From: Candidatus Aenigmatarchaeota archaeon
GTDB taxonomy: Archaea; Aenigmatarchaeota; Aenigmatarchaeia; PWEA01
DNA: 64,000 nt
Direction: 5' to 3'
NCBI GenBank assembly: GCA_046539325.1
Contig: JBKHHD010000001.1
Coordinates: forward strand, 1 to 64,000
The position numbers and the translations under genes were made by a program. This document shows, piece after piece, positions 27,461 through 36,094 of this stretch. The notes under the pieces are model-generated. The model saw only the letters and a list, made by a program, of their open reading frames with translations. It searched no databases and was not told the origin of the DNA. The first letter of the stretch is position 1. Each line of letters begins with the position of its first letter.

Positions 27461-27795
27461 TCGATTTCGCTCCGCTCTTGATTAACGTAGCAATAAGTTT
27501 TGTCGCGCTTTATATCGGAAATAGATTGATCTCAGGTAGAATATCCTATATCAAGCTTCTCGGGATAGCTGCCTCTGGACAGCTCTTCATAATTTACGCT
27601 CTTCCATATGCTCTAACGGTTACCAGCATGATTCCAATCGCACGACTTGATCTGATATTCGAGGCTATAGTCTGGGTAGGTCTGGTGAACTTTGTAGTGC
27701 CTAAAACCACACCAAAGGAGTATTTTATTTTAGGTATATTGGCATTTGGTGTAAATTATCTTATCGGATATTTCGAGTTATTGTCCCTTATCTAG
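27457..27795 (+). CDS. Small membrane protein (about 4 TM)
   Basis: Hydrophobic ORF with an ATGA overlap to gatE. Confidence 0.7.
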   Translation: MIDFAPLLINVAISFVALYIGNRLISGRISYIKLLGIAASGQLFIIYALPYALTVTSMIPIARLDLIFEAIVWVGLVNFVVPKTTPKEYFILGILAFGVNYLIGYFELLSLI

Positions 27796-28657
27796 TCCCT
27801 GATTTCATATGTTCTTTTAACCCAAACTTTAACCTTCCCTTATCCGTATCCAAGATACAGTTCGCCCCTATTGGGAAGGTTAGGTTTGGTTCCTTATGCC
27901 CAAAATCCATACGGTAAAGAACAGGTATATCGAAATCTTTGAAAAAATCCTTTAGATATTGTTTATTTTCATCAAAATTGAAATTGCCCAGAATAACTCC
28001 CTTCGCTTTCTCGAACTTACCCGCCAGTCTTAACTGTTCAAGTAGATCGTAGATCCTCTGGCCCTTTGGATTGTTTTGCTCTAGAAATATAATTTTCCCA
28101 TCAGTGTCGTATTCATAAGCCGTTCCTAGGGATTCATTGAACAAGTTCAGATTCCCCGCTATGACCCTGCCGCTCGTTTTTCCAGAAACGAAAACGTTTT
28201 TATCGTCAAATTTCCAAGAATAATCTTCCGCCTTAAGGGCTTGCTTAACTGATTCTATAGTCATTTTATCGTATTCTTTCATCTCTTTATAGGGCATAGG
28301 TCCATGGAACGTGATTATTCCCGTCCGAGAACTTATTGCATTGAGGAGAAGTGTAGGATTACTGTAACCTATAATCTTCTTTCCTTGTTTTATTTTATCG
28401 TATTCTATTTCCTCGAGGATTTGAATTGACCCATACCCACCCCTTATGCACCACAGTATTTCACTGTTGTCCTGGAGAGCAGAGTTAATATCCTCAATTC
28501 TTGTCTCCGGGCGCCCAGCAAAGTCCAAATAATCCTCTTTTACTGCTTCAGAAAATGTGACTTCGTAACCTAATTTCTTTACAAACCGCCGTGCATTTCG
28601 CAACTTTTTATCGGTTATCTTCGAAGAAGGTGTTATTAATCTTACTTTCTCCTCCAT
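27788..28657 (-). CDS. S66-family peptidase (LD-carboxypeptidase/MccF-like)
   Basis: ITPSS, IRGGYGS, GYSNPT (Ser nucleophile), TFHGP, GNL, FLE (Glu), FGH (His), PIG. Confidence 0.92.
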   Translation of the reverse strand: MEEKVRLITPSSKITDKKLRNARRFVKKLGYEVTFSEAVKEDYLDFAGRPETRIEDINSALQDNSEILWCIRGGYGSIQILEEIEYDKIKQGKKIIGYSNPTLLLNAISSRTGIITFHGPMPYKEMKEYDKMTIESVKQALKAEDYSWKFDDKNVFVSGKTSGRVIAGNLNLFNESLGTAYEYDTDGKIIFLEQNNPKGQRIYDLLEQLRLAGKFEKAKGVILGNFNFDENKQYLKDFFKDFDIPVLYRMDFGHKEPNLTFPIGANCILDTDKGRLKFGLKEHMKSGTR

Positions 28658-28660
28658 TTT

Positions 28661-29725
28661 CTAATCCTCCAGAAGCTCATCAACGTACTCATTCACAGGC
28701 ATAGCCAACTGGTATATGAACTCCCTTTCACCCCTTTCTCCTGATACCTTTCGTCGGGTTTTGAGGCCTGTACAAGCTCCGTTTATCTCCATTATTTTTG
28801 ATTCCATTGTCTCCTGTTTCCTTAGCTCTTGAGGAAGAACTACAAAATCTGCACAACCATAGGTCATACCGGTTTGTTCTGCTATAGATCTAGTTATTTC
28901 CTCCTCTCTCTTACTTGGTTTATATCTTAGCCTTTCCTTTTCAACTACTTCATTTTCGGGGCCCCATGGTGTGTCCCTATTCCTTATTTCTCTTGAGCCA
29001 ATTATCTCAAAGCCTTTTCCAAGATAGTTGTCGTTAATGAATACTATTCTCCTGTCCCTTCGTCCTGGGATAAATTCTTGGAAAAGATATTCATCTATGT
29101 TTTCGTCCCCAAACATCTCTTCTATATCATCCATACCCATATCGTTCTCAAGGAGTTGGACATCAAGACCCTGGCCTCCTATTATTGGTTTTTTTATAAT
29201 CTTACCTTTCTCCTCAAGTAGATCTTCAAATTCTCCTGGACCAGATACGTCGTAGTTTTTGAGTGTTGGCACATCGTCCAGTTCTTCATATTTGTCCTTT
29301 CTTTCAGCTAACCACTCAGCAGAGAGATCATTTATAACGTATTCAAAATTCTCACTATACTCGTCCAAATGATCTATAATTTTATCAAATTCCTCTCTCG
29401 TACTGAAAGATTTATGTTCTGTTCCCCTTATGAAGAGGAGGTCTCCGGTGACCTTTGACTTTCTTTCATCCTTTTCGACTAGGTATGAATCTCTGCCCTT
29501 ATTGACGAGTTCGTATATTTTACCCACATTTTCACCTTCAAGATAGTCTTCTGACTTGATTACACTCACGTCATACTTTGAATCAAGAGAAGATAATAGA
29601 AGCCTTGTTGAGGGATATATACTTCTTCCTTCTATTTCTTCATTTCTCATTGTGGAGACGTCGTTGTTTACTGCAACATATACCTCTTTATCTGATTCTT
29701 CAAACATCCTATCTAAACCATCCAT
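28661..29725 (-). CDS. ATP-grasp ligase (RimK/glutathione synthetase-like, divergent)
   Basis: IKKPIIGGQGLDV, FQEFIPGRRDRRI, GCADFV, MEING. Confidence 0.85.
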   Translation of the reverse strand: MDGLDRMFEESDKEVYVAVNNDVSTMRNEEIEGRSIYPSTRLLLSSLDSKYDVSVIKSEDYLEGENVGKIYELVNKGRDSYLVEKDERKSKVTGDLLFIRGTEHKSFSTREEFDKIIDHLDEYSENFEYVINDLSAEWLAERKDKYEELDDVPTLKNYDVSGPGEFEDLLEEKGKIIKKPIIGGQGLDVQLLENDMGMDDIEEMFGDENIDEYLFQEFIPGRRDRRIVFINDNYLGKGFEIIGSREIRNRDTPWGPENEVVEKERLRYKPSKREEEITRSIAEQTGMTYGCADFVVLPQELRKQETMESKIMEINGACTGLKTRRKVSGERGEREFIYQLAMPVNEYVDELLED

Positions 29726-29752
29726 TTGAAATAAAGATTAAATATCTTGAAA

Positions 29753-30646
29753 TTATTTTACCGTTTCCTTAACTAAGAGGGGATCAAGAATACCATCGAC
29801 GATTCTTCCAACTGGATCGAAGCCCAGTTCCTCTTTGTATCTTGGGCGGAAGTTAGGAGTAAGGTTGTTCTCTATTATCGCCAACCCATTTTCAGTTGAG
29901 ATAACATCCATTACATTTAGATCAGCATCTATTGATTCCGTGGTTTTGATGCATAGGTCAACTATATCCTTGTTTTCTTCTCGATTGAACCTTCTCAGCT
30001 CTGAGCCACTTGAAACACTTCCCATCCACTTTATATCTGAGTTTTTCTCAATAAGTGTCCTTGAATTTCCAAAGAGAAACTGATCACGGAATATACAGAC
30101 CCTATGATCAAGACCTTCTTTTGATCTCAGGAACTCTTGGAGTATTATTTTACCTTTGTAGTTCTCATCTTCGGAGATTACACTGTACGCCTTTCTCAGT
30201 TCTTCTCTATTTCTTACAAGCTTTACATCCTTTCCTCTTCCACCACGAGCTCTCTTTATTACTGCAGGAAAATCTATGTCTGGGGCAGGTAAACTGGAAT
30301 CTATTACTTTTGTTTTTGGAGTGTAAATACCAGAGGAGCGCATTTTGTCATATGCATAGTGTTTATCATAATCTGATTTACTAGCTTCAAAGCTATTAAT
30401 TACCTCTACTCCTTCGTCTTCCAACCTCTTCAACATCTTTAATGTTCTAGGTATTGCTTCGTAATTTCTGTTAGCAACACTTGCGTAAACTCTATTCATC
30501 GCGATTTCTGGATTGTAATCTAATATTTCGCTAGTGTCTGTATCTCTCACATCGAAGAGCTTGACTTCTGAACCCTTTTCTTCAAACTTTCTCTTGAACT
30601 CCTTCTCGCTCCATTCAAGTTCCTCATGCAGAATAGCTACTCTCAT
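29753..30646 (-). CDS. ATP-grasp ligase (RimK/LysX family)
   Basis: VINS...DK...GIYTPKT, FPAVIK...GGRGKDV, LQEFL, DHRV, IENNLTPNF; GAGGTGA SD inside the racemase 3' end. Confidence 0.9.
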   Translation of the reverse strand: MRVAILHEELEWSEKEFKRKFEEKGSEVKLFDVRDTDTSEILDYNPEIAMNRVYASVANRNYEAIPRTLKMLKRLEDEGVEVINSFEASKSDYDKHYAYDKMRSSGIYTPKTKVIDSSLPAPDIDFPAVIKRARGGRGKDVKLVRNREELRKAYSVISEDENYKGKIILQEFLRSKEGLDHRVCIFRDQFLFGNSRTLIEKNSDIKWMGSVSSGSELRRFNREENKDIVDLCIKTTESIDADLNVMDVISTENGLAIIENNLTPNFRPRYKEELGFDPVGRIVDGILDPLLVKETVK

Positions 30647-31535
30647 TTTTACTCACCTCAACTACTTTTTCAGCTAGAATTTCGACTGGGTCAATAAGGG
30701 GAACAGGAAAATCATTGTTGGAAAGGACAAGTGGAATTTCCGTGCAGCCCATGATCACTGCATCAGATCCCTTTCTTATGAGATTCTCCGTCGCCTTTTC
30801 CAGCTTCTTTTTTGACTCTGTTTTTTCGCCTTTCTTAATTTCGTAAATCGAATCCATGACATTATCTTGGAAGTTATCATCAGGTACCATTGGCTCCCTG
30901 CCACTTTCCTCTATGAAGCTTGAATAGACCTCAGTTTCCATGGAACCTGTTGTGATTAGGAGTCCGATATTCTCCGCTTCTGGATACTCACTCACCACGA
31001 AATCTGTAGCCTCTTCGATCAAGTTTATGGTTTCTATCCCAACAGAACTGTCTATATCGTCAAAGAAGTGATGGGCAGTATTACAGGGAATCACAATGAA
31101 GTCAGCGCCAGCTCTCTCCAAGGATCTGGCTGTTTCGACCATCTCATCCAAAGGACATTCGCCATCGTTAAGAATATGGTCAGAACGATCAGGAATCTGT
31201 GGGTTGTTAAATATCATAACAGGTATATTTTCCTGGTCCTTTTCAGCATCTGATTTAGATAATATCTTTCGATGAAGGTCCAAAGTTGCTTCCGGGCCCA
31301 TTCCACCAAGGACACCAGCAGTCTTGAACTCGTTGCTTGAAGTCTTCTTATTCTCTTCAGAAGAAATTGCAGACTCTATGCCACTCATCACACCACTTAT
31401 AAGCCTAGAAACCAACTCATGGCCCTCCAAAGATCTTTTAAATCTTTTTTGAACCTGAAAATTATCTATAAAGTGGTTAAAATCATCTCCTTCTTTACAT
31501 TCTTCTTCAATACACTCTTCTTTGATTAAAGACAT
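30624..31535 (-). CDS. PLP-independent aspartate/glutamate racemase with a ~68-aa N-terminal extension
   Basis: GVLGGMGPEAT, IPDRS, IPCNTAH and MGCTEIP; both catalytic Cys are present. Confidence 0.93.
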   Translation of the reverse strand: MSLIKEECIEEECKEGDDFNHFIDNFQVQKRFKRSLEGHELVSRLISGVMSGIESAISSEENKKTSSNEFKTAGVLGGMGPEATLDLHRKILSKSDAEKDQENIPVMIFNNPQIPDRSDHILNDGECPLDEMVETARSLERAGADFIVIPCNTAHHFFDDIDSSVGIETINLIEEATDFVVSEYPEAENIGLLITTGSMETEVYSSFIEESGREPMVPDDNFQDNVMDSIYEIKKGEKTESKKKLEKATENLIRKGSDAVIMGCTEIPLVLSNNDFPVPLIDPVEILAEKVVEVSKNESSYSA

Positions 31536-32271: not shown

Positions 32272-34269
32272 CTATGAAACAACGTTATTACTGAAGACGC
32301 CGCATTTCATCTCGTTCTCTACTTCACCGAGATGTTGCCTGAAGCGACCGAAGTTTCCGTTTTCAAGGGCATCGTTTGCCTTCTCAAGGTTGCAGACCAC
32401 GTTGTGCGGATTAGTTATCTCGTCTCTCTTTAGTGCTTCCTTCACCCTTCTTGTAGTTTCAAAGAACTCCTTGTCAAGCTCCTTCTTCCTTGAAACCTTA
32501 CGTTCGTTCTTCTCTTCCTCTACTAAAAAGGTCTGTTCAAACTTTTTGAAAACAACAGAAGCCTTCTCTCTACCTCTATCGCTTGCTAGAAGAAGTACGA
32601 TGAAGATTGCAACTATTATTATTACTATGAAGCCCCATACTCTTCTGACACCTCTTATAAGGAGGCCTGTAACAGTCCTCCTTTCCATTTCATCCTCTCC
32701 GTATGCCTGGATCATCTTCATCTCATCGAACCTTCCAGCTTCGATGTGGCCGTCAAAAGACATCTCTACTCTTCCTATCTGTCCTTCGTCCATCTCAAAT
32801 ACCCAGGAAAACTTGGGGTTCTCTTCAATAACTTCCGTCGGCCCTGGGAAGGTCATAACTTCGTCCATGCTTTGAGCAACATCCTCCGGAATATCCATAG
32901 TTAGGTTTACTTTTCTCTTCTCATCTGCGGAGTTCTTTACATTTACAGCTATCCTCGTCTCGTCTTCGTCCTCGTCGTAAAGGTACTCGGTACTGAAGTA
33001 TACGTCTCTGCTTACACCGTCAGCTGTTTCCTCTATTTTGTAAAGGGGCTCAGTCCTTTCCTTTACAGTCACTTCGACTTCCTGTGAATCTACTTTGCCT
33101 CTGTCGTCCTCGATCTCAAACAGTGCTGTGTAAACTCCAGGTTCCTCGTATACGTGTAGCGTTCTTCCAGTCTCCTCATCAACGTAGTCCCACTCACCAT
33201 CACCGTCGAAGTCCCACCTGTATTCAGTTATATCTCCTCCAAGGCTCACTCCTTCACCCCAAAAGAAGACGCCTATATCGTTCACGCCTCTGAGCTTTTC
33301 ATCGGTTACTGCGTTCGGCCTTACCTCTATATCCTTTGTTTCCTTGAACTGGGCTTCGCCGACCTTGTAGCGGTCGTCCCATTCAACAACAGCCCTGAAC
33401 CTGTACTCTGTATCTATACCCAGATCTCTCACTTCTTGCGAAAACTCTCCTTCGGAGGTCATCTCCTGTCTATCGGTCTCAACCCATTCGCCGTCACCGT
33501 TTCTGTATCTAAAGTAAACATCGACACTGTCCTCAAGTCCTATGTTTGTTAGCTCCGCAACCAGAACAGCTGAGTTATCTGTAACACTTTCAGCATACTT
33601 CGCTTCTACGGAAGGAAGGTCGTGGGCTTCAAATGACGTGGTAGCATTTCCTGCTTCGACGTGGTACTTTCCACTTTCCTTTGGAACGTATGAAGCACTG
33701 ACAGTTTTCGTCTCACCGGCCTCTACCTCAACTGTCTCAGAAATAACTGTTTTGTCGCTGACCTCGAAATCAACGGTTGTTTCACCGGTCTGTCCTCCAA
33801 CGTTTTCTACGTCCAGTTTAAGGTTGGTTTGGTCGTCCACGTAGACCTTTTCAGGATCCACTCTAAGGTTACTGAACTTGAATTCAGCGGGATTCTTTTC
33901 AGTTTCAAAGATAAGATCTTCCTCACCGATCCACTCCACCACTACCTGGAATTCGTAATTTTCATCAGAATCTATATCCGTAATAATCTTGGAGTAAGTG
34001 CCTTCAGAACTCATGGTTCTTTCGTCAGTTTTGGTCCATCCCTTGCGTCCTTCCTCTCGATAACGGAAGTAGACATCAATCTCTTCAAGCTCCGCAAGAT
34101 CCACAACATCTGCGTGCACAGTTACAGGATCATATGTAAGGCTCCCTTCGATTACGGGTTTTTGCCTTTCCTCGGCTGAAACATAAGAACTTATGGCAAT
34201 AGCAAAGGCTCCAATCAAAACAAGCGCCATCAAAGCTCCAGCTATCTTGTATTTCATATATACCCCCAT
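32272..34269 (-). CDS. Secreted, C-terminally membrane-anchored multidomain surface protein (two FN3-like repeats, CARDB-like, PKD)
   Basis: Signal peptide; duplicated DVYFRYR..W..TD...M.SEG...Y.F..VVEW; VENVGG (CARDB); YRWDFDGDG...HVYEEPGVY (PKD); C-terminal TM and cytoplasmic tail. Confidence 0.8.
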   Translation of the reverse strand: MGVYMKYKIAGALMALVLIGAFAIAISSYVSAEERQKPVIEGSLTYDPVTVHADVVDLAELEEIDVYFRYREEGRKGWTKTDERTMSSEGTYSKIITDIDSDENYEFQVVVEWIGEEDLIFETEKNPAEFKFSNLRVDPEKVYVDDQTNLKLDVENVGGQTGETTVDFEVSDKTVISETVEVEAGETKTVSASYVPKESGKYHVEAGNATTSFEAHDLPSVEAKYAESVTDNSAVLVAELTNIGLEDSVDVYFRYRNGDGEWVETDRQEMTSEGEFSQEVRDLGIDTEYRFRAVVEWDDRYKVGEAQFKETKDIEVRPNAVTDEKLRGVNDIGVFFWGEGVSLGGDITEYRWDFDGDGEWDYVDEETGRTLHVYEEPGVYTALFEIEDDRGKVDSQEVEVTVKERTEPLYKIEETADGVSRDVYFSTEYLYDEDEDETRIAVNVKNSADEKRKVNLTMDIPEDVAQSMDEVMTFPGPTEVIEENPKFSWVFEMDEGQIGRVEMSFDGHIEAGRFDEMKMIQAYGEDEMERRTVTGLLIRGVRRVWGFIVIIIVAIFIVLLLASDRGREKASVVFKKFEQTFLVEEEKNERKVSRKKELDKEFFETTRRVKEALKRDEITNPHNVVCNLEKANDALENGNFGRFRQHLGEVENEMKCGVFSNNVVS

Positions 34270-34618
34270 TGAGTTTCTACTGAACTGTTACAACTAATCG
34301 ATAGAAAAATTTAAATATCTTGAGTAAGTTCGCCAAGGAAAATATCACACTAAAAACTAGTTCGGTAAAAAGTTGGGTTTCTTTATCCTTTTAACACATT
34401 CATTCTGGAATTTTTTCGTCCATGTACTCCATCAAGAGATGGTCGTGATCTCCCTTGAGATCTTTGCGGGAAGTCAAGGAGTATTCTTCGTCATTTAACC
34501 CGATATTATCACCTACCCAAAGGTTGTTAGAAAAAGCTTAAATAGTTTGAGACGCTTTATCCGGTCGAAGTTTCAGCAACAAGGTATAAATGCCTTGAAA
34601 CCCAATAATTACGGTGCT

Positions 34619-36094
34619 ATGAAACAAATAAAACTGCTTTTAGGAATAGTACTGGCCTTTAGCGTTCTGGTAGTACCTGTTGCAGCACAGGAGGAGGATG
34701 TTGACAGGGTTCTGCTAGCAAGCGAGGCGAACTATCCCGACGCTGTAGTCGGAAGTTCCGTCTCGGAGAAGCTTTCAGTACCCGTAGTTTTAACGGATGT
34801 TGATCAGATTCCCGAAGAAGCCGAAGGTGCTATCGAAGAGTACGCTCCGGAAGAAGTCGTAGTCATCGGAGGACCATCCGTTGTTTCCGACGAGATTGTT
34901 GATCAGTTGGAAGAGGACTACAATGTGAGCAGGCTCTGGGGAGTTACAAGGTATAGGACCGCCCAGGAGGTAATGGAGAGGTTCTGGCCTGAGGGAACGG
35001 ATGAGGCGGTTCTAGTTGAAGATAACATCGAAGACAAAGGGGGTGAAGTCCTCGCCAAGGCGAGAGATCTCGCAGGCGAAAGACCTGTTATCCCGATTCC
35101 TGAGGGTAAGATTCCTGCAGGAGTTTTGAACCAGCTTGAAGAAATGGATACAAATGAAGTAGATGTGGTCGCAACAGAGATCAGCGAAGAGATGAGACAG
35201 GATCTTGAGGAAGTTGACGTAGGTTTAGGCGAAGAGGTGACTGCCCAGAATAGGGAGCAGCTCAAAGAAGAAGTCCAGGACAGAACAAGAGAAGACCTAG
35301 AAGGAGAGGACAGCCTCCTTGCTGTGGCTTCTCAAGGACACAGAGATGTGATCTCCGGTTTGAACTCGCCTGGAAGACCTCGCTACATGATTAGCAGCGA
35401 AGAGGAAATTCAGGGGCTTGTAGACCTGGTAGGCGAGGAAGACATACAGGAGGTCAAAATCGTAGGAGATCCCGACCTTACAGGGGAGATCGCAGATGCT
35501 CTCGAGGAAACGGATGCGAACGTTGATCTAGTTGTAGAAAGAGCCTCAACGGCCGTTGCACAGGCTTCCGAGCTCGCGAGGGAAAACAGACCGGACTTCG
35601 CGGAGAAGTTCGCACAGAAGAACGAACAGTGGGAACAGAGGGTCCAGGAAAGAGAAGTCGAAATCGAAGAAAGAGTCCGTAAGGAACTCAACAGAACCAA
35701 AGGAGCCACGGAGGACTGGGACGGAACCGAGCTCGAAGGCAAAGTCGAGGAAGCCGAGGAAGCGATGGAGCAAGGCGATTACCAGGAAGCAATGGAGATA
35801 GCCCAGGAAGCCAGGTCTGAAGCCAGAAAGATGAGATACGAGGAGTTCAAAGACTACCCCGAAGATGTGAACAGAGAGGTCAGAAAGGAGATGATGAACA
35901 TCCGCGAGAGGACCCAGGAGCTCAGAGAGATAAATCAGGAGTTCGGAGATAGAATGCAGAACAACATGACCATGGAGGGAAGACTGGAGACGATAGAGAA
36001 CGTACGTGAAAGGCGCCATGAAAAGGTCGGCGAGCTCCTTGAGGACGCTATGCGCAGAGGACGCGAAAAGGCCAAACCCTCTTTTATTTTATAA
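34619..36094 (+). CDS. Secreted protein with cell-wall-binding repeat 2 (CW_binding_2) domains and a long C-terminal helical/coiled-coil region
   Basis: Start moved to ATG 34619; signal peptide; NYPDA..., PVVLT, VVVIGGPSVVS, RLWG.TRY.TA. Confidence 0.82.
   Translation: MKQIKLLLGIVLAFSVLVVPVAAQEEDVDRVLLASEANYPDAVVGSSVSEKLSVPVVLTDVDQIPEEAEGAIEEYAPEEVVVIGGPSVVSDEIVDQLEEDYNVSRLWGVTRYRTAQEVMERFWPEGTDEAVLVEDNIEDKGGEVLAKARDLAGERPVIPIPEGKIPAGVLNQLEEMDTNEVDVVATEISEEMRQDLEEVDVGLGEEVTAQNREQLKEEVQDRTREDLEGEDSLLAVASQGHRDVISGLNSPGRPRYMISSEEEIQGLVDLVGEEDIQEVKIVGDPDLTGEIADALEETDANVDLVVERASTAVAQASELARENRPDFAEKFAQKNEQWEQRVQEREVEIEERVRKELNRTKGATEDWDGTELEGKVEEAEEAMEQGDYQEAMEIAQEARSEARKMRYEEFKDYPEDVNREVRKEMMNIRERTQELREINQEFGDRMQNNMTMEGRLETIENVRERRHEKVGELLEDAMRRGREKAKPSFIL

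Follow-up and report, generated by a model that had tools for sequence, protein, structure and literature searches.

A candidate D-aspartate ligation operon with an aspartate-type racemase, two ATP-grasp ligases and an S66 peptidase in a DPANN archaeon

We analyzed a 64,000-nucleotide stretch of DNA (the window) from a Candidatus Aenigmatarchaeota archaeon and describe an operon at positions 27788-31535, which contains four co-oriented minus-strand genes in the order racemase, lig1, lig2 and S66. We consider it somewhat probable that their products make up a cytoplasmic ATP-grasp assembly line, in which D-aspartate or a close acidic analogue would become part of a short amide-linked product, whose L-D bond the S66 peptidase would cleave. 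The four-gene arrangement is not due to chance, as the same genes occur in the same order and at the same site in a congener and the set was also found in loci outside the genus. The gene identities, the intact catalytic residues, the conserved order and coupling, the co-inheritance and the independence from murein and pseudomurein ligases are directly supported by the data below. The features are as follows:

30624-31535, minus strand: racemase, pyridoxal-phosphate-independent and aspartate-type, 303 aa (from the open reading frame (ORF) list, Pfam and NCBIfam)
29753-30646, minus strand: lig1, RimK-type ATP-grasp amide ligase, 297 aa, its start overlapping the racemase stop by 23 nt
28661-29725, minus strand: lig2, very divergent RimK/GshB-type ATP-grasp ligase, 354 aa
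27788-28657, minus strand: S66 serine peptidase of the short form, LD-carboxypeptidase/MccF family, 289 aa
31536-31947, no strand: AT-rich intergenic region upstream of the racemase, 412 nt, guanine-plus-cytosine (GC) fraction 0.272; likely the operon promoter region

In the pathway that we favor, the racemase would convert L-aspartate to D-aspartate. Lig1, which appears translationally coupled to the racemase, would then activate a carboxylate as an acyl-phosphate at the expense of ATP and join it to an amine, with D-aspartate as one of the two partners, and lig2, which has the same fold, would add the next residue or make the acceptor that lig1 extends. Finally, the S66 peptidase, coupled to lig2, would hydrolyze the C-terminal L-D bond of the product, which may serve trimming, turnover or proofreading. 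In this scheme we infer the direction of racemization, all of the substrates, the acceptor, the product, the order of ligation and the bond cut by S66. All four proteins are taken to be cytoplasmic, as no obvious N-terminal signal or membrane segment was seen in them by eye.

Arrangement and recurrence of the four genes

The tight packing reported in the initial annotation, with a 23-nt overlap between the racemase and lig1, a 27-nt gap between lig1 and lig2 and a 3-nt gap between lig2 and S66, agreed exactly with the gene coordinates. To place it in a wider context, we used a synteny set of 28 loci anchored on the lig1 family, with one genome per species, in which neighbouring genes were counted by tblastn and profile searches; genes were called as lig2 family at 170 bits or more. 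The synteny elsewhere on which the initial annotation had staked its reading was found: the racemase was directly upstream of lig1 in 21 of the 28 loci, a lig2-family gene was downstream of lig1 in 12, and S66 was present in eight, each time immediately after lig2, and these eight hold all four genes. Seven of the loci with all four genes are outside the host genus. The exact racemase-lig1-lig2-S66 order was present in five loci (L008, L010, L011, L014 and L029), and one additional ligase was inserted between lig1 and lig2 in L009, L026 and L030, the last of which is from Patescibacteria. L011 is the locus of the congener (genome G007), in which the four genes keep their order, their site and their neighbours.

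The genes were also closely coupled in other genomes. The distance from the racemase stop to the lig1 start ranged from -23 to +6 nt in 18 of the 20 measured loci (+34 and +352 nt in the other two), and that from the lig2 end to the S66 start ranged from -38 to +1 nt in all eight loci; each start was set at that of the longest ORF, which may exaggerate the overlaps. Seven lig1 loci had no racemase: one archaeal locus, which contained a YheCD-type ligase and an alanine racemase instead, one from Thermoplasmatales and five from Pseudomonadota, and the gene neighbours of the lig1-like genes in the Thermoplasmatales and Pseudomonadota loci gave no useful context. The carriers of the racemase-lig1 module were DPANN archaea and Patescibacteria. 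The module is not archaea-specific, a correction to the initial annotation, which spoke of an archaeal pathway.

The ligases that follow lig1 varied in number, from none to three, and in type. A GSP_synth-like ligase replaced or was added to the set in L006 and L009, a YheCD-like ligase together with an alanine racemase was found in L007 and L012, and RimK-like ligases were also among the extra ligases of other loci. Such added ATP-grasp ligases and alanine racemases fit a stepwise assembly of peptides with D-residues. Further additions were a C39-like peptidase in L010, nitroreductases in L009 and L027, and radical SAM/SPASM genes in L032. The racemase-lig1 pair is the constant core of the module, which is otherwise not fixed, in correction of the initial annotation, and because the downstream ligases vary, the products probably differ between lineages. 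Directly after S66 in L008 (9722-11806), we also observed a 694-aa fusion of glutamine amidotransferase, asparagine synthase and diphthamide-synthase-like domains.

Enzyme families and catalytic residues

The assignment of the genes to a racemase, two ATP-grasp ligases and an S66 peptidase, made initially from the sequence alone, was borne out by Pfam and NCBIfam matches, and the catalytic motifs named at that time were all located. The racemase matched Pfam Asp_Glu_race with 146.9 bits (E-value 9.2e-43). Its score against the NCBIfam aspartate racemase model asp_race (TIGR00035) was 207.8 bits, well above the cut-off of 93.1, whereas that against the glutamate racemase model glut_race (MurI, TIGR00067) was 30.1 bits, far below the cut-off of 146.65. 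It also exceeded the cut-off of the cysteate racemase model CuyB (NF052483), with 240.7 against 190 bits. CuyB itself belongs to the aspartate racemase family (PMC11193023). A PALP-family enzyme (PF00291, the family of CuyA) was not found in the 91% complete host genome, while the control search matched in 14 of 14 genomes. Because of the family scores and the lack of a PALP-family match, the predicted substrate is aspartate or a small acidic amino acid resembling it, and not glutamate; the aspartate half of the earlier Asp/Glu label thus stood and the glutamate half did not. The operon also differs from CuyB systems in its context, which is one of ligases and not of sulfonate breakdown.

The best solved relative of the racemase was the aspartate racemase of Pyrococcus horikoshii (1jfl, 9.3e-56), with both cysteine motifs aligned. 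Both catalytic cysteines are present, Cys151 in PCNTAH (motif start at residue 150) and Cys264 in GCTE (start at residue 263). The DR and K positions of the P. horikoshii enzyme were likewise conserved in the alignment; we take these residues (Arg48 and Lys164) to be the binders of the side-chain carboxylate. The catalytic core covers approximately residues 71-295. The racemase is the only Asp_Glu_race gene of the host genome, in which no alanine racemase was found at 91% completeness. We also observed an N-terminal extension of approximately 70 aa (31326-31535, residues 1-70). The solved aspartate racemase and most homologues (232-286 aa) lack it, and the congener keeps residues 32-70 of it.

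Lig1 matched the Pfam RimK ATP-grasp domain with 41.8 bits (cut-off 21; 1.2e-10) and remained under all NCBIfam cut-offs: 91.8 of 143.4 bits for rimK_fam (TIGR00768), 79.6 of 350 for MptN, 68.5 of 275.6 for LysX, 51.5 of 300 for CofF and 22.3 of 331 for RimK. The possibility that the ligases are merely orthologues of CofF, MptN or LysX, which the initial annotation had weighed against itself, does not agree with these scores. The lig1 family comprised 77 proteins with about 31-46% identity, and the named sources were "archaeon", Woesearchaeota and Patescibacteria. Invariant in this family are K131, D247, E259 and N261 and an NRVYASVANR motif, which is located in the N-terminal, substrate-side domain. 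When the family profile was compared with solved structures, RimK was the best match (7qys, 2.8e-19), followed by ArgX and LysX.

Lig2 is nearly an orphan. A word-index search of 5.8 billion proteins returned nothing beyond lig2 itself, and a profile search of 1.84 billion representatives returned 82 proteins at E<=1e-3, of which 30 reached E<=1e-10. Its match to Pfam GSH-S_ATP was just above the cut-off (24.2 against 23 bits), and it was below the NCBIfam cut-offs of rimK_fam (21.9 of 143.4 bits) and MptN (24.7 of 350). Invariant residues in its family are K143, K179, D293 and N315, and E313 and R226 are near-invariant. The ESM Atlas model of lig2 (predicted template modelling score 0.76) gave template modelling scores of 0.65-0.72 to RimK-family clusters over residues ~10-354. 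In alignments to solved RimK, the ATP-binding Lys and the Mg-binding D/E/N residues were retained in both lig1 and lig2; each thus combines a Pfam ATP-grasp domain with the conserved Lys and Asp/Glu/Asn residues that define the superfamily. The two proteins look catalytically competent and appear to be of the same fold class.

The solved structures closest to the lig2 profile also led us to consider that lig2 is a macrocyclase of a graspetide-type ribosomally synthesized and post-translationally modified peptide, in which it would close rings through side-chain esters or amides of a ribosomal precursor. The top match was 7drm (6.7e-12), which we presume to be the graspetide cyclase PsnB, and it was followed by CdnC, AMdnB, an MvdD-like protein and 5ig9; the C39-like peptidase of L010 and the radical SAM/SPASM genes of L032 would also suit such a system. 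However, RimK (7qyr, 2.2e-11) and GshB (1gsa, 1e-10) nearly tied with 7drm, and no conserved sense-strand small ORF, as expected of a precursor, was found among ATG-started frames of 30-95 aa in 21 loci and the window, the shared ones being antisense shadows in the racemase and lig1 genes. We know of no graspetide pathway in which a racemase and an LD-carboxypeptidase have a place, and we regard this interpretation of the operon as very improbable. The profile similarity of lig2 to GshB and to the graspetide cyclases (7drm, 7mgv, 7m4s and 5ig9), together with its GSH-S_ATP match, is a likeness of shared fold only. The operon contains neither GshA nor a precursor peptide.

The S66 protein contained both Peptidase_S66 (99.9 bits) and Peptidase_S66C (101.5 bits), and its triad of Ser99 (GYSN), Glu193 (FLEQ) and His254 (FGHK) was invariant in 14 of 14 aligned sequences. 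It scored 134.4 bits against the LdcA equivalog PRK11253 (muramoyltetrapeptide carboxypeptidase), below the cut-off of 378. We found that it belongs to a distinct short subfamily of six full-length clusters (281-293 aa, 43-56% identity), beyond which full-length matches had at most 37% identity and bacterial LdcA-type enzymes formed the nearest outgroup. The scores against solved MccF-like and LdcA proteins were about equal. The subfamily profile spanned LdcA (6uuk) almost without gaps, with 278 positions over 286 residues, whereas on MccF (3gjz) 272 positions covered 307 residues, which left approximately 35 extra residues in MccF. Judged from these aligned spans, the subfamily has the length of LdcA and is predicted to lack the ~35-residue insertion of MccF. 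In MccF, an extra loop between the two domains holds the nucleotide. The operon protein shares with LdcA and MccF the two S66 domains and the catalytic triad of Ser, Glu and His; in contrast to LdcA and MccF systems, the surroundings of the operon include no murein-recycling or microcin genes.

Inheritance, distribution and genomic site

The identities between the host and the congener were 72% for the racemase, 46% for lig1, 36% for lig2 and 53% for S66, compared with 72% for gatE. In the trees, the host racemase was sister to that of the congener with a Shimodaira-Hasegawa-like approximate likelihood ratio support of 99, and the S66 proteins were likewise sisters (96); the lig2 proteins of the two genomes fell into one weakly supported group (82). 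Additionally, a deep split of the racemase tree was mirrored in the lig2 tree for every locus with both genes, and all five lig2 clade-1 loci belonged to racemase clade 1. The gene origins thus appear broadly concordant, which agrees in the main with what the initial annotation required, through the racemase, S66 and the lig2 split, and departs from it for lig1, as described below.

The module is a rare accessory. Full-length, high-scoring lig1 was found in 4 of the 301 sampled genomes of the host phylum (the host genome G000, G007, G104 and G202), and the other 25 matches at E<=1e-20 were partial and scored at most 106 bits, like the RimK paralogue of the host itself. In the phylum of a Pacearchaeota carrier, such lig1 genes were present in 9 of 401 genomes, and lig2 was present in 2 of the 8 genomes of the host genus. 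In G104, a lig1-lig2 pair occurred with neither a racemase nor S66 nearby. Racemase and S66 genes were clustered only in the host and its congener among the 301 genomes; elsewhere, if matches to both were on one contig, they were tens of kilobases apart. The other S66 genes of Aenigmatarchaeota, a phylum without murein, were longer; most of their open frames spanned 305-358 aa.

The site of the operon was occupied differently in other congeners. In G004, the equivalent site (L044 5686-10525) contained a MiaB-like radical SAM enzyme, a GCS2-type carboxylate-amine ligase, a YheCD-type ATP-grasp protein and an AstE/AspA-family deacylase, and it was bounded by the gatE-side 112-aa membrane gene on one side and by the DUF167 and surface-protein genes on the other. 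In G001, it contained a PHP-like protein, an unknown protein and a MiaB-like enzyme (L045 2347-5260). The G004 cassette appears to echo the operon, again with two amide ligases and a predicted hydrolase of N-acyl acidic amino acids. The presence of two different cassettes at one site argues that they are interchangeable functional units.

This variable site, the rare and patchy occurrence of the module and the fast evolution of its ligases relative to gatE would also suit an antagonistic peptide or aminoacyl-nucleotide mimic, in which the ligases make a toxic aspartate compound and an MccF-like S66 protein confers immunity on the producer. The MccF-like BA_5613 (6.1e-26) and MccF were among the top solved matches to the S66 protein. 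Nevertheless, the window contains no MccB-type adenylating enzyme, exporter or precursor gene and none is conserved across the loci, no PADLOC defence model was matched, and the subfamily lacks the MccF insertion by aligned span. An antagonist of this kind is, in our judgement, quite improbable.

The host assembly is that of a DPANN archaeon and comprises 715 kb in 10 contigs. The GC fractions of the four operon genes were 0.386-0.407, compared with 0.475-0.476 for gatD and gatE and 0.435 for the whole window. The reported AT-richness of the operon relative to gatE is thus genuine yet modest, and the neighbouring small genes were equally AT-rich (112-aa membrane gene, 0.398; DUF167 gene, 0.387). 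Composition says little about origin because these flanking genes share the deficit, and a horizontal origin argued from GC alone was found unconvincing. The intergenic region upstream of the racemase contained no ORF that was kept in other loci. The stretch was present in four DNA sequencing runs, all from one study, and no RNA run was listed with it.

Two large, very acidic, probable surface proteins were observed next to the operon. One, at 32272-34269 on the minus strand, combines PKD and CARDB domains with a membrane segment at its C-terminus, and the other, at 34547-36094 on the plus strand, has a CWB2 cell-wall-binding domain, which is unusual for an archaeon. A second amide-ligase cluster was observed on contig 2 of the host genome at ~62.7-66.2 kb (L034). 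It contains a 317-aa ATP-grasp protein with ATPgrasp_ST, GSH-S and RimK matches, a 294-aa RimK-domain protein (114 bits) and an adjoining 279-aa protein without a Pfam match; the host thus has at least four ATP-grasp ligases including lig1 and lig2, or five if the 279-aa protein is counted.

Proposed pathway, alternatives and significance

Several observations weigh against the proposed D-aspartate ligation pathway. The host lig1 (29753-30646) paired with a Pacearchaeota locus (support 99) and not with the lig1 of the congener (L011 7001-7933); a sister clade of the two was rejected by the approximately unbiased test (p = 8e-5), for a clade that was named post hoc and with long branches involved. 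Either lig1 was exchanged in one lineage or the tree is an artefact of long branches, and because the two are not sisters, the operon does not appear to have been strictly inherited as one block. The four-gene form is one variant and not the rule: 9 of the 21 racemase-lig1 loci had no lig2-family gene, S66 followed lig2 in only 8 of the 12 lig2 loci, and these counts depend on a lig2 profile built from database matches that possibly included the proteins later classified with it. No conserved acceptor, transporter or carrier gene was found beside the operon in the examined loci. Asp_Glu_race genes occurred in 62 of the 301 Aenigmatarchaeota genomes and S66 genes in 30, nearly all without lig1 or lig2 nearby, so neither enzyme needs the ligases in general. 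Racemases are reversible, and the operon enzyme could also serve D-to-L salvage. Moreover, an aminoacyl-tRNA synthetase gene was located within two co-oriented genes downstream of the racemase in 7 of 15 sampled Aenigmatarchaeota loci (22 neighbouring proteins scanned), which fits amino-acid salvage. In the seven loci (L047, L049, L050, L053, L054, L055 and L056), the synthetases were HisRS-like in three, of the class II D/K/N type in one and of the class I W/Y type in three.

These last observations bear on a salvage of scavenged D-amino-acid peptides, in which S66 would cut the L-D bonds of murein-type peptides, the racemase would supply the L-form for translation, as the nearby synthetase genes would suggest, and the ligases would rebuild or re-route the remainder. 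The organism, with its 715-kb genome, probably depends on others for amino acids, racemases and S66 peptidases are fairly common in the phylum without ligases, and the nearest outgroup of the S66 subfamily is of the bacterial LdcA type. In a simple catabolic route, however, two ATP-consuming ligases would have no role. The tightest coupling was between the racemase and lig1 and not between the racemase and S66, S66 was missing from 13 of the 21 racemase-lig1 loci, and no peptide transporter was conserved in the loci. We therefore consider salvage improbable as the function of this operon.

A somewhat better candidate, though still an unlikely one, is a reversible tagging of protein C-termini, in which the RimK-type ligases would add D-aspartate and another residue and the S66 carboxypeptidase would remove the tag. 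RimK acts in this manner on ribosomal protein S6, and tubulin-tyrosine ligases act on tubulin. Both operon ligases are nearest to RimK, LysX and ArgX, all of which act on protein C-termini, and proteins in the lig2 position of L008 and L012 showed weak matches to the TTL family (1.7e-4 and 3.9e-6, respectively). The C39-like peptidase of L010 is of a type found with RimK, and the G004 cassette pairs an ATP-grasp protein with an AstE/AspA-family deacylase, a family that is presumably related to the carboxypeptidases that remove tubulin tags. A ligase together with a carboxypeptidase also has the logic of a tag-and-detag cycle. On the other hand, no conserved gene for a small carrier or target was found beside the operon, archaea do not have the bacterial S6, and relatives of RimK also use small molecules (MptN, CofF and the NAAG synthetases).

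The ligation pathway that we favor was compared with known systems. Its closest parallel in gene content and logic is the Aslfm-type D-aspartate ligase and aspartate racemase of Enterococcus faecium and Lactococcus. In both, the racemase gene adjoins an ATP-grasp ligase gene, and the logic of making D-aspartate and then ligating it with ATP is similar. The Aslfm acceptor is a UDP-MurNAc-peptide, whereas no murein ligase was found in the host genome; the operon differs further in its two RimK/GshB-type ligases and S66 peptidase and in its DPANN and Patescibacteria hosts. In particular, Mur_ligase_M gave no match in the host genome (91% complete) or in four of the five other carrier genomes, including the one from Patescibacteria, and it was matched in the remaining one. 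Because no Mur-type ligases were found in the host and these four carriers, the module appears to be independent of murein and pseudomurein synthesis. The Patescibacteria genome of L030 (G308), for which no completeness is stated, is a bacterial genome with no Mur_ligase_M match. A cyanophycin-type polymerase was rejected as a candidate, as lig1 and lig2 each consist of a single ATP-grasp protein about 300-350 aa long, with no Mur-ligase-like domain fused to it.

Among solved proteins, the operon ligases come closest to RimK, LysX, ArgX, MptN and CofF, which they resemble in fold, in overall length and in the catalytic residues of the ATP-grasp. The differences are that the cut-offs of these families were missed widely, that lig1 has an invariant motif of its own and that the operon has no LysW-like carrier close by; nor do these enzymes characteristically pair with a racemase. 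As to the product, the osmolyte suggested earlier is unlikely as a general answer, since the record titles of most carriers name Woesearchaeota, Pacearchaeota, unclassified archaea or Patescibacteria and not halophiles. The view that the gene set is undescribed still holds: a search of the literature full text returned no description of it. The parts and their chemistry are of known kinds, and it is the combination, the hosts and the modular variation that appear to be undescribed.

In a broader and more doubtful interpretation, the module may be a mobile, non-ribosomal and D-aspartate-consuming pathway specific to DPANN archaea and Patescibacteria, which would make a lineage-tailored D-peptide or tag for host-bound life from a constant racemase-lig1 core and interchangeable downstream ligases, with the site beside the surface-protein genes as a point of cassette exchange. 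If this is true, it would be the first dedicated use of D-aspartate known in archaea. To our knowledge, archaea have long been known to contain aspartate racemases and free D-aspartate, with no use assigned to either, and a racemase translationally coupled to an ATP-dependent ligase provides a concrete candidate for a D-aspartate consumer. The enzymes could also prove useful as D-amino-acid ligases. A genome of only ~715 kb spends four genes here and at least two, perhaps three, further ATP-grasp genes elsewhere on amide-bond chemistry, which suggests that the product matters for a host-dependent life. As DPANN archaea and Patescibacteria are unrelated ultra-small episymbionts and both carry the module, it is a candidate for a common adaptation or for genes exchanged between them.

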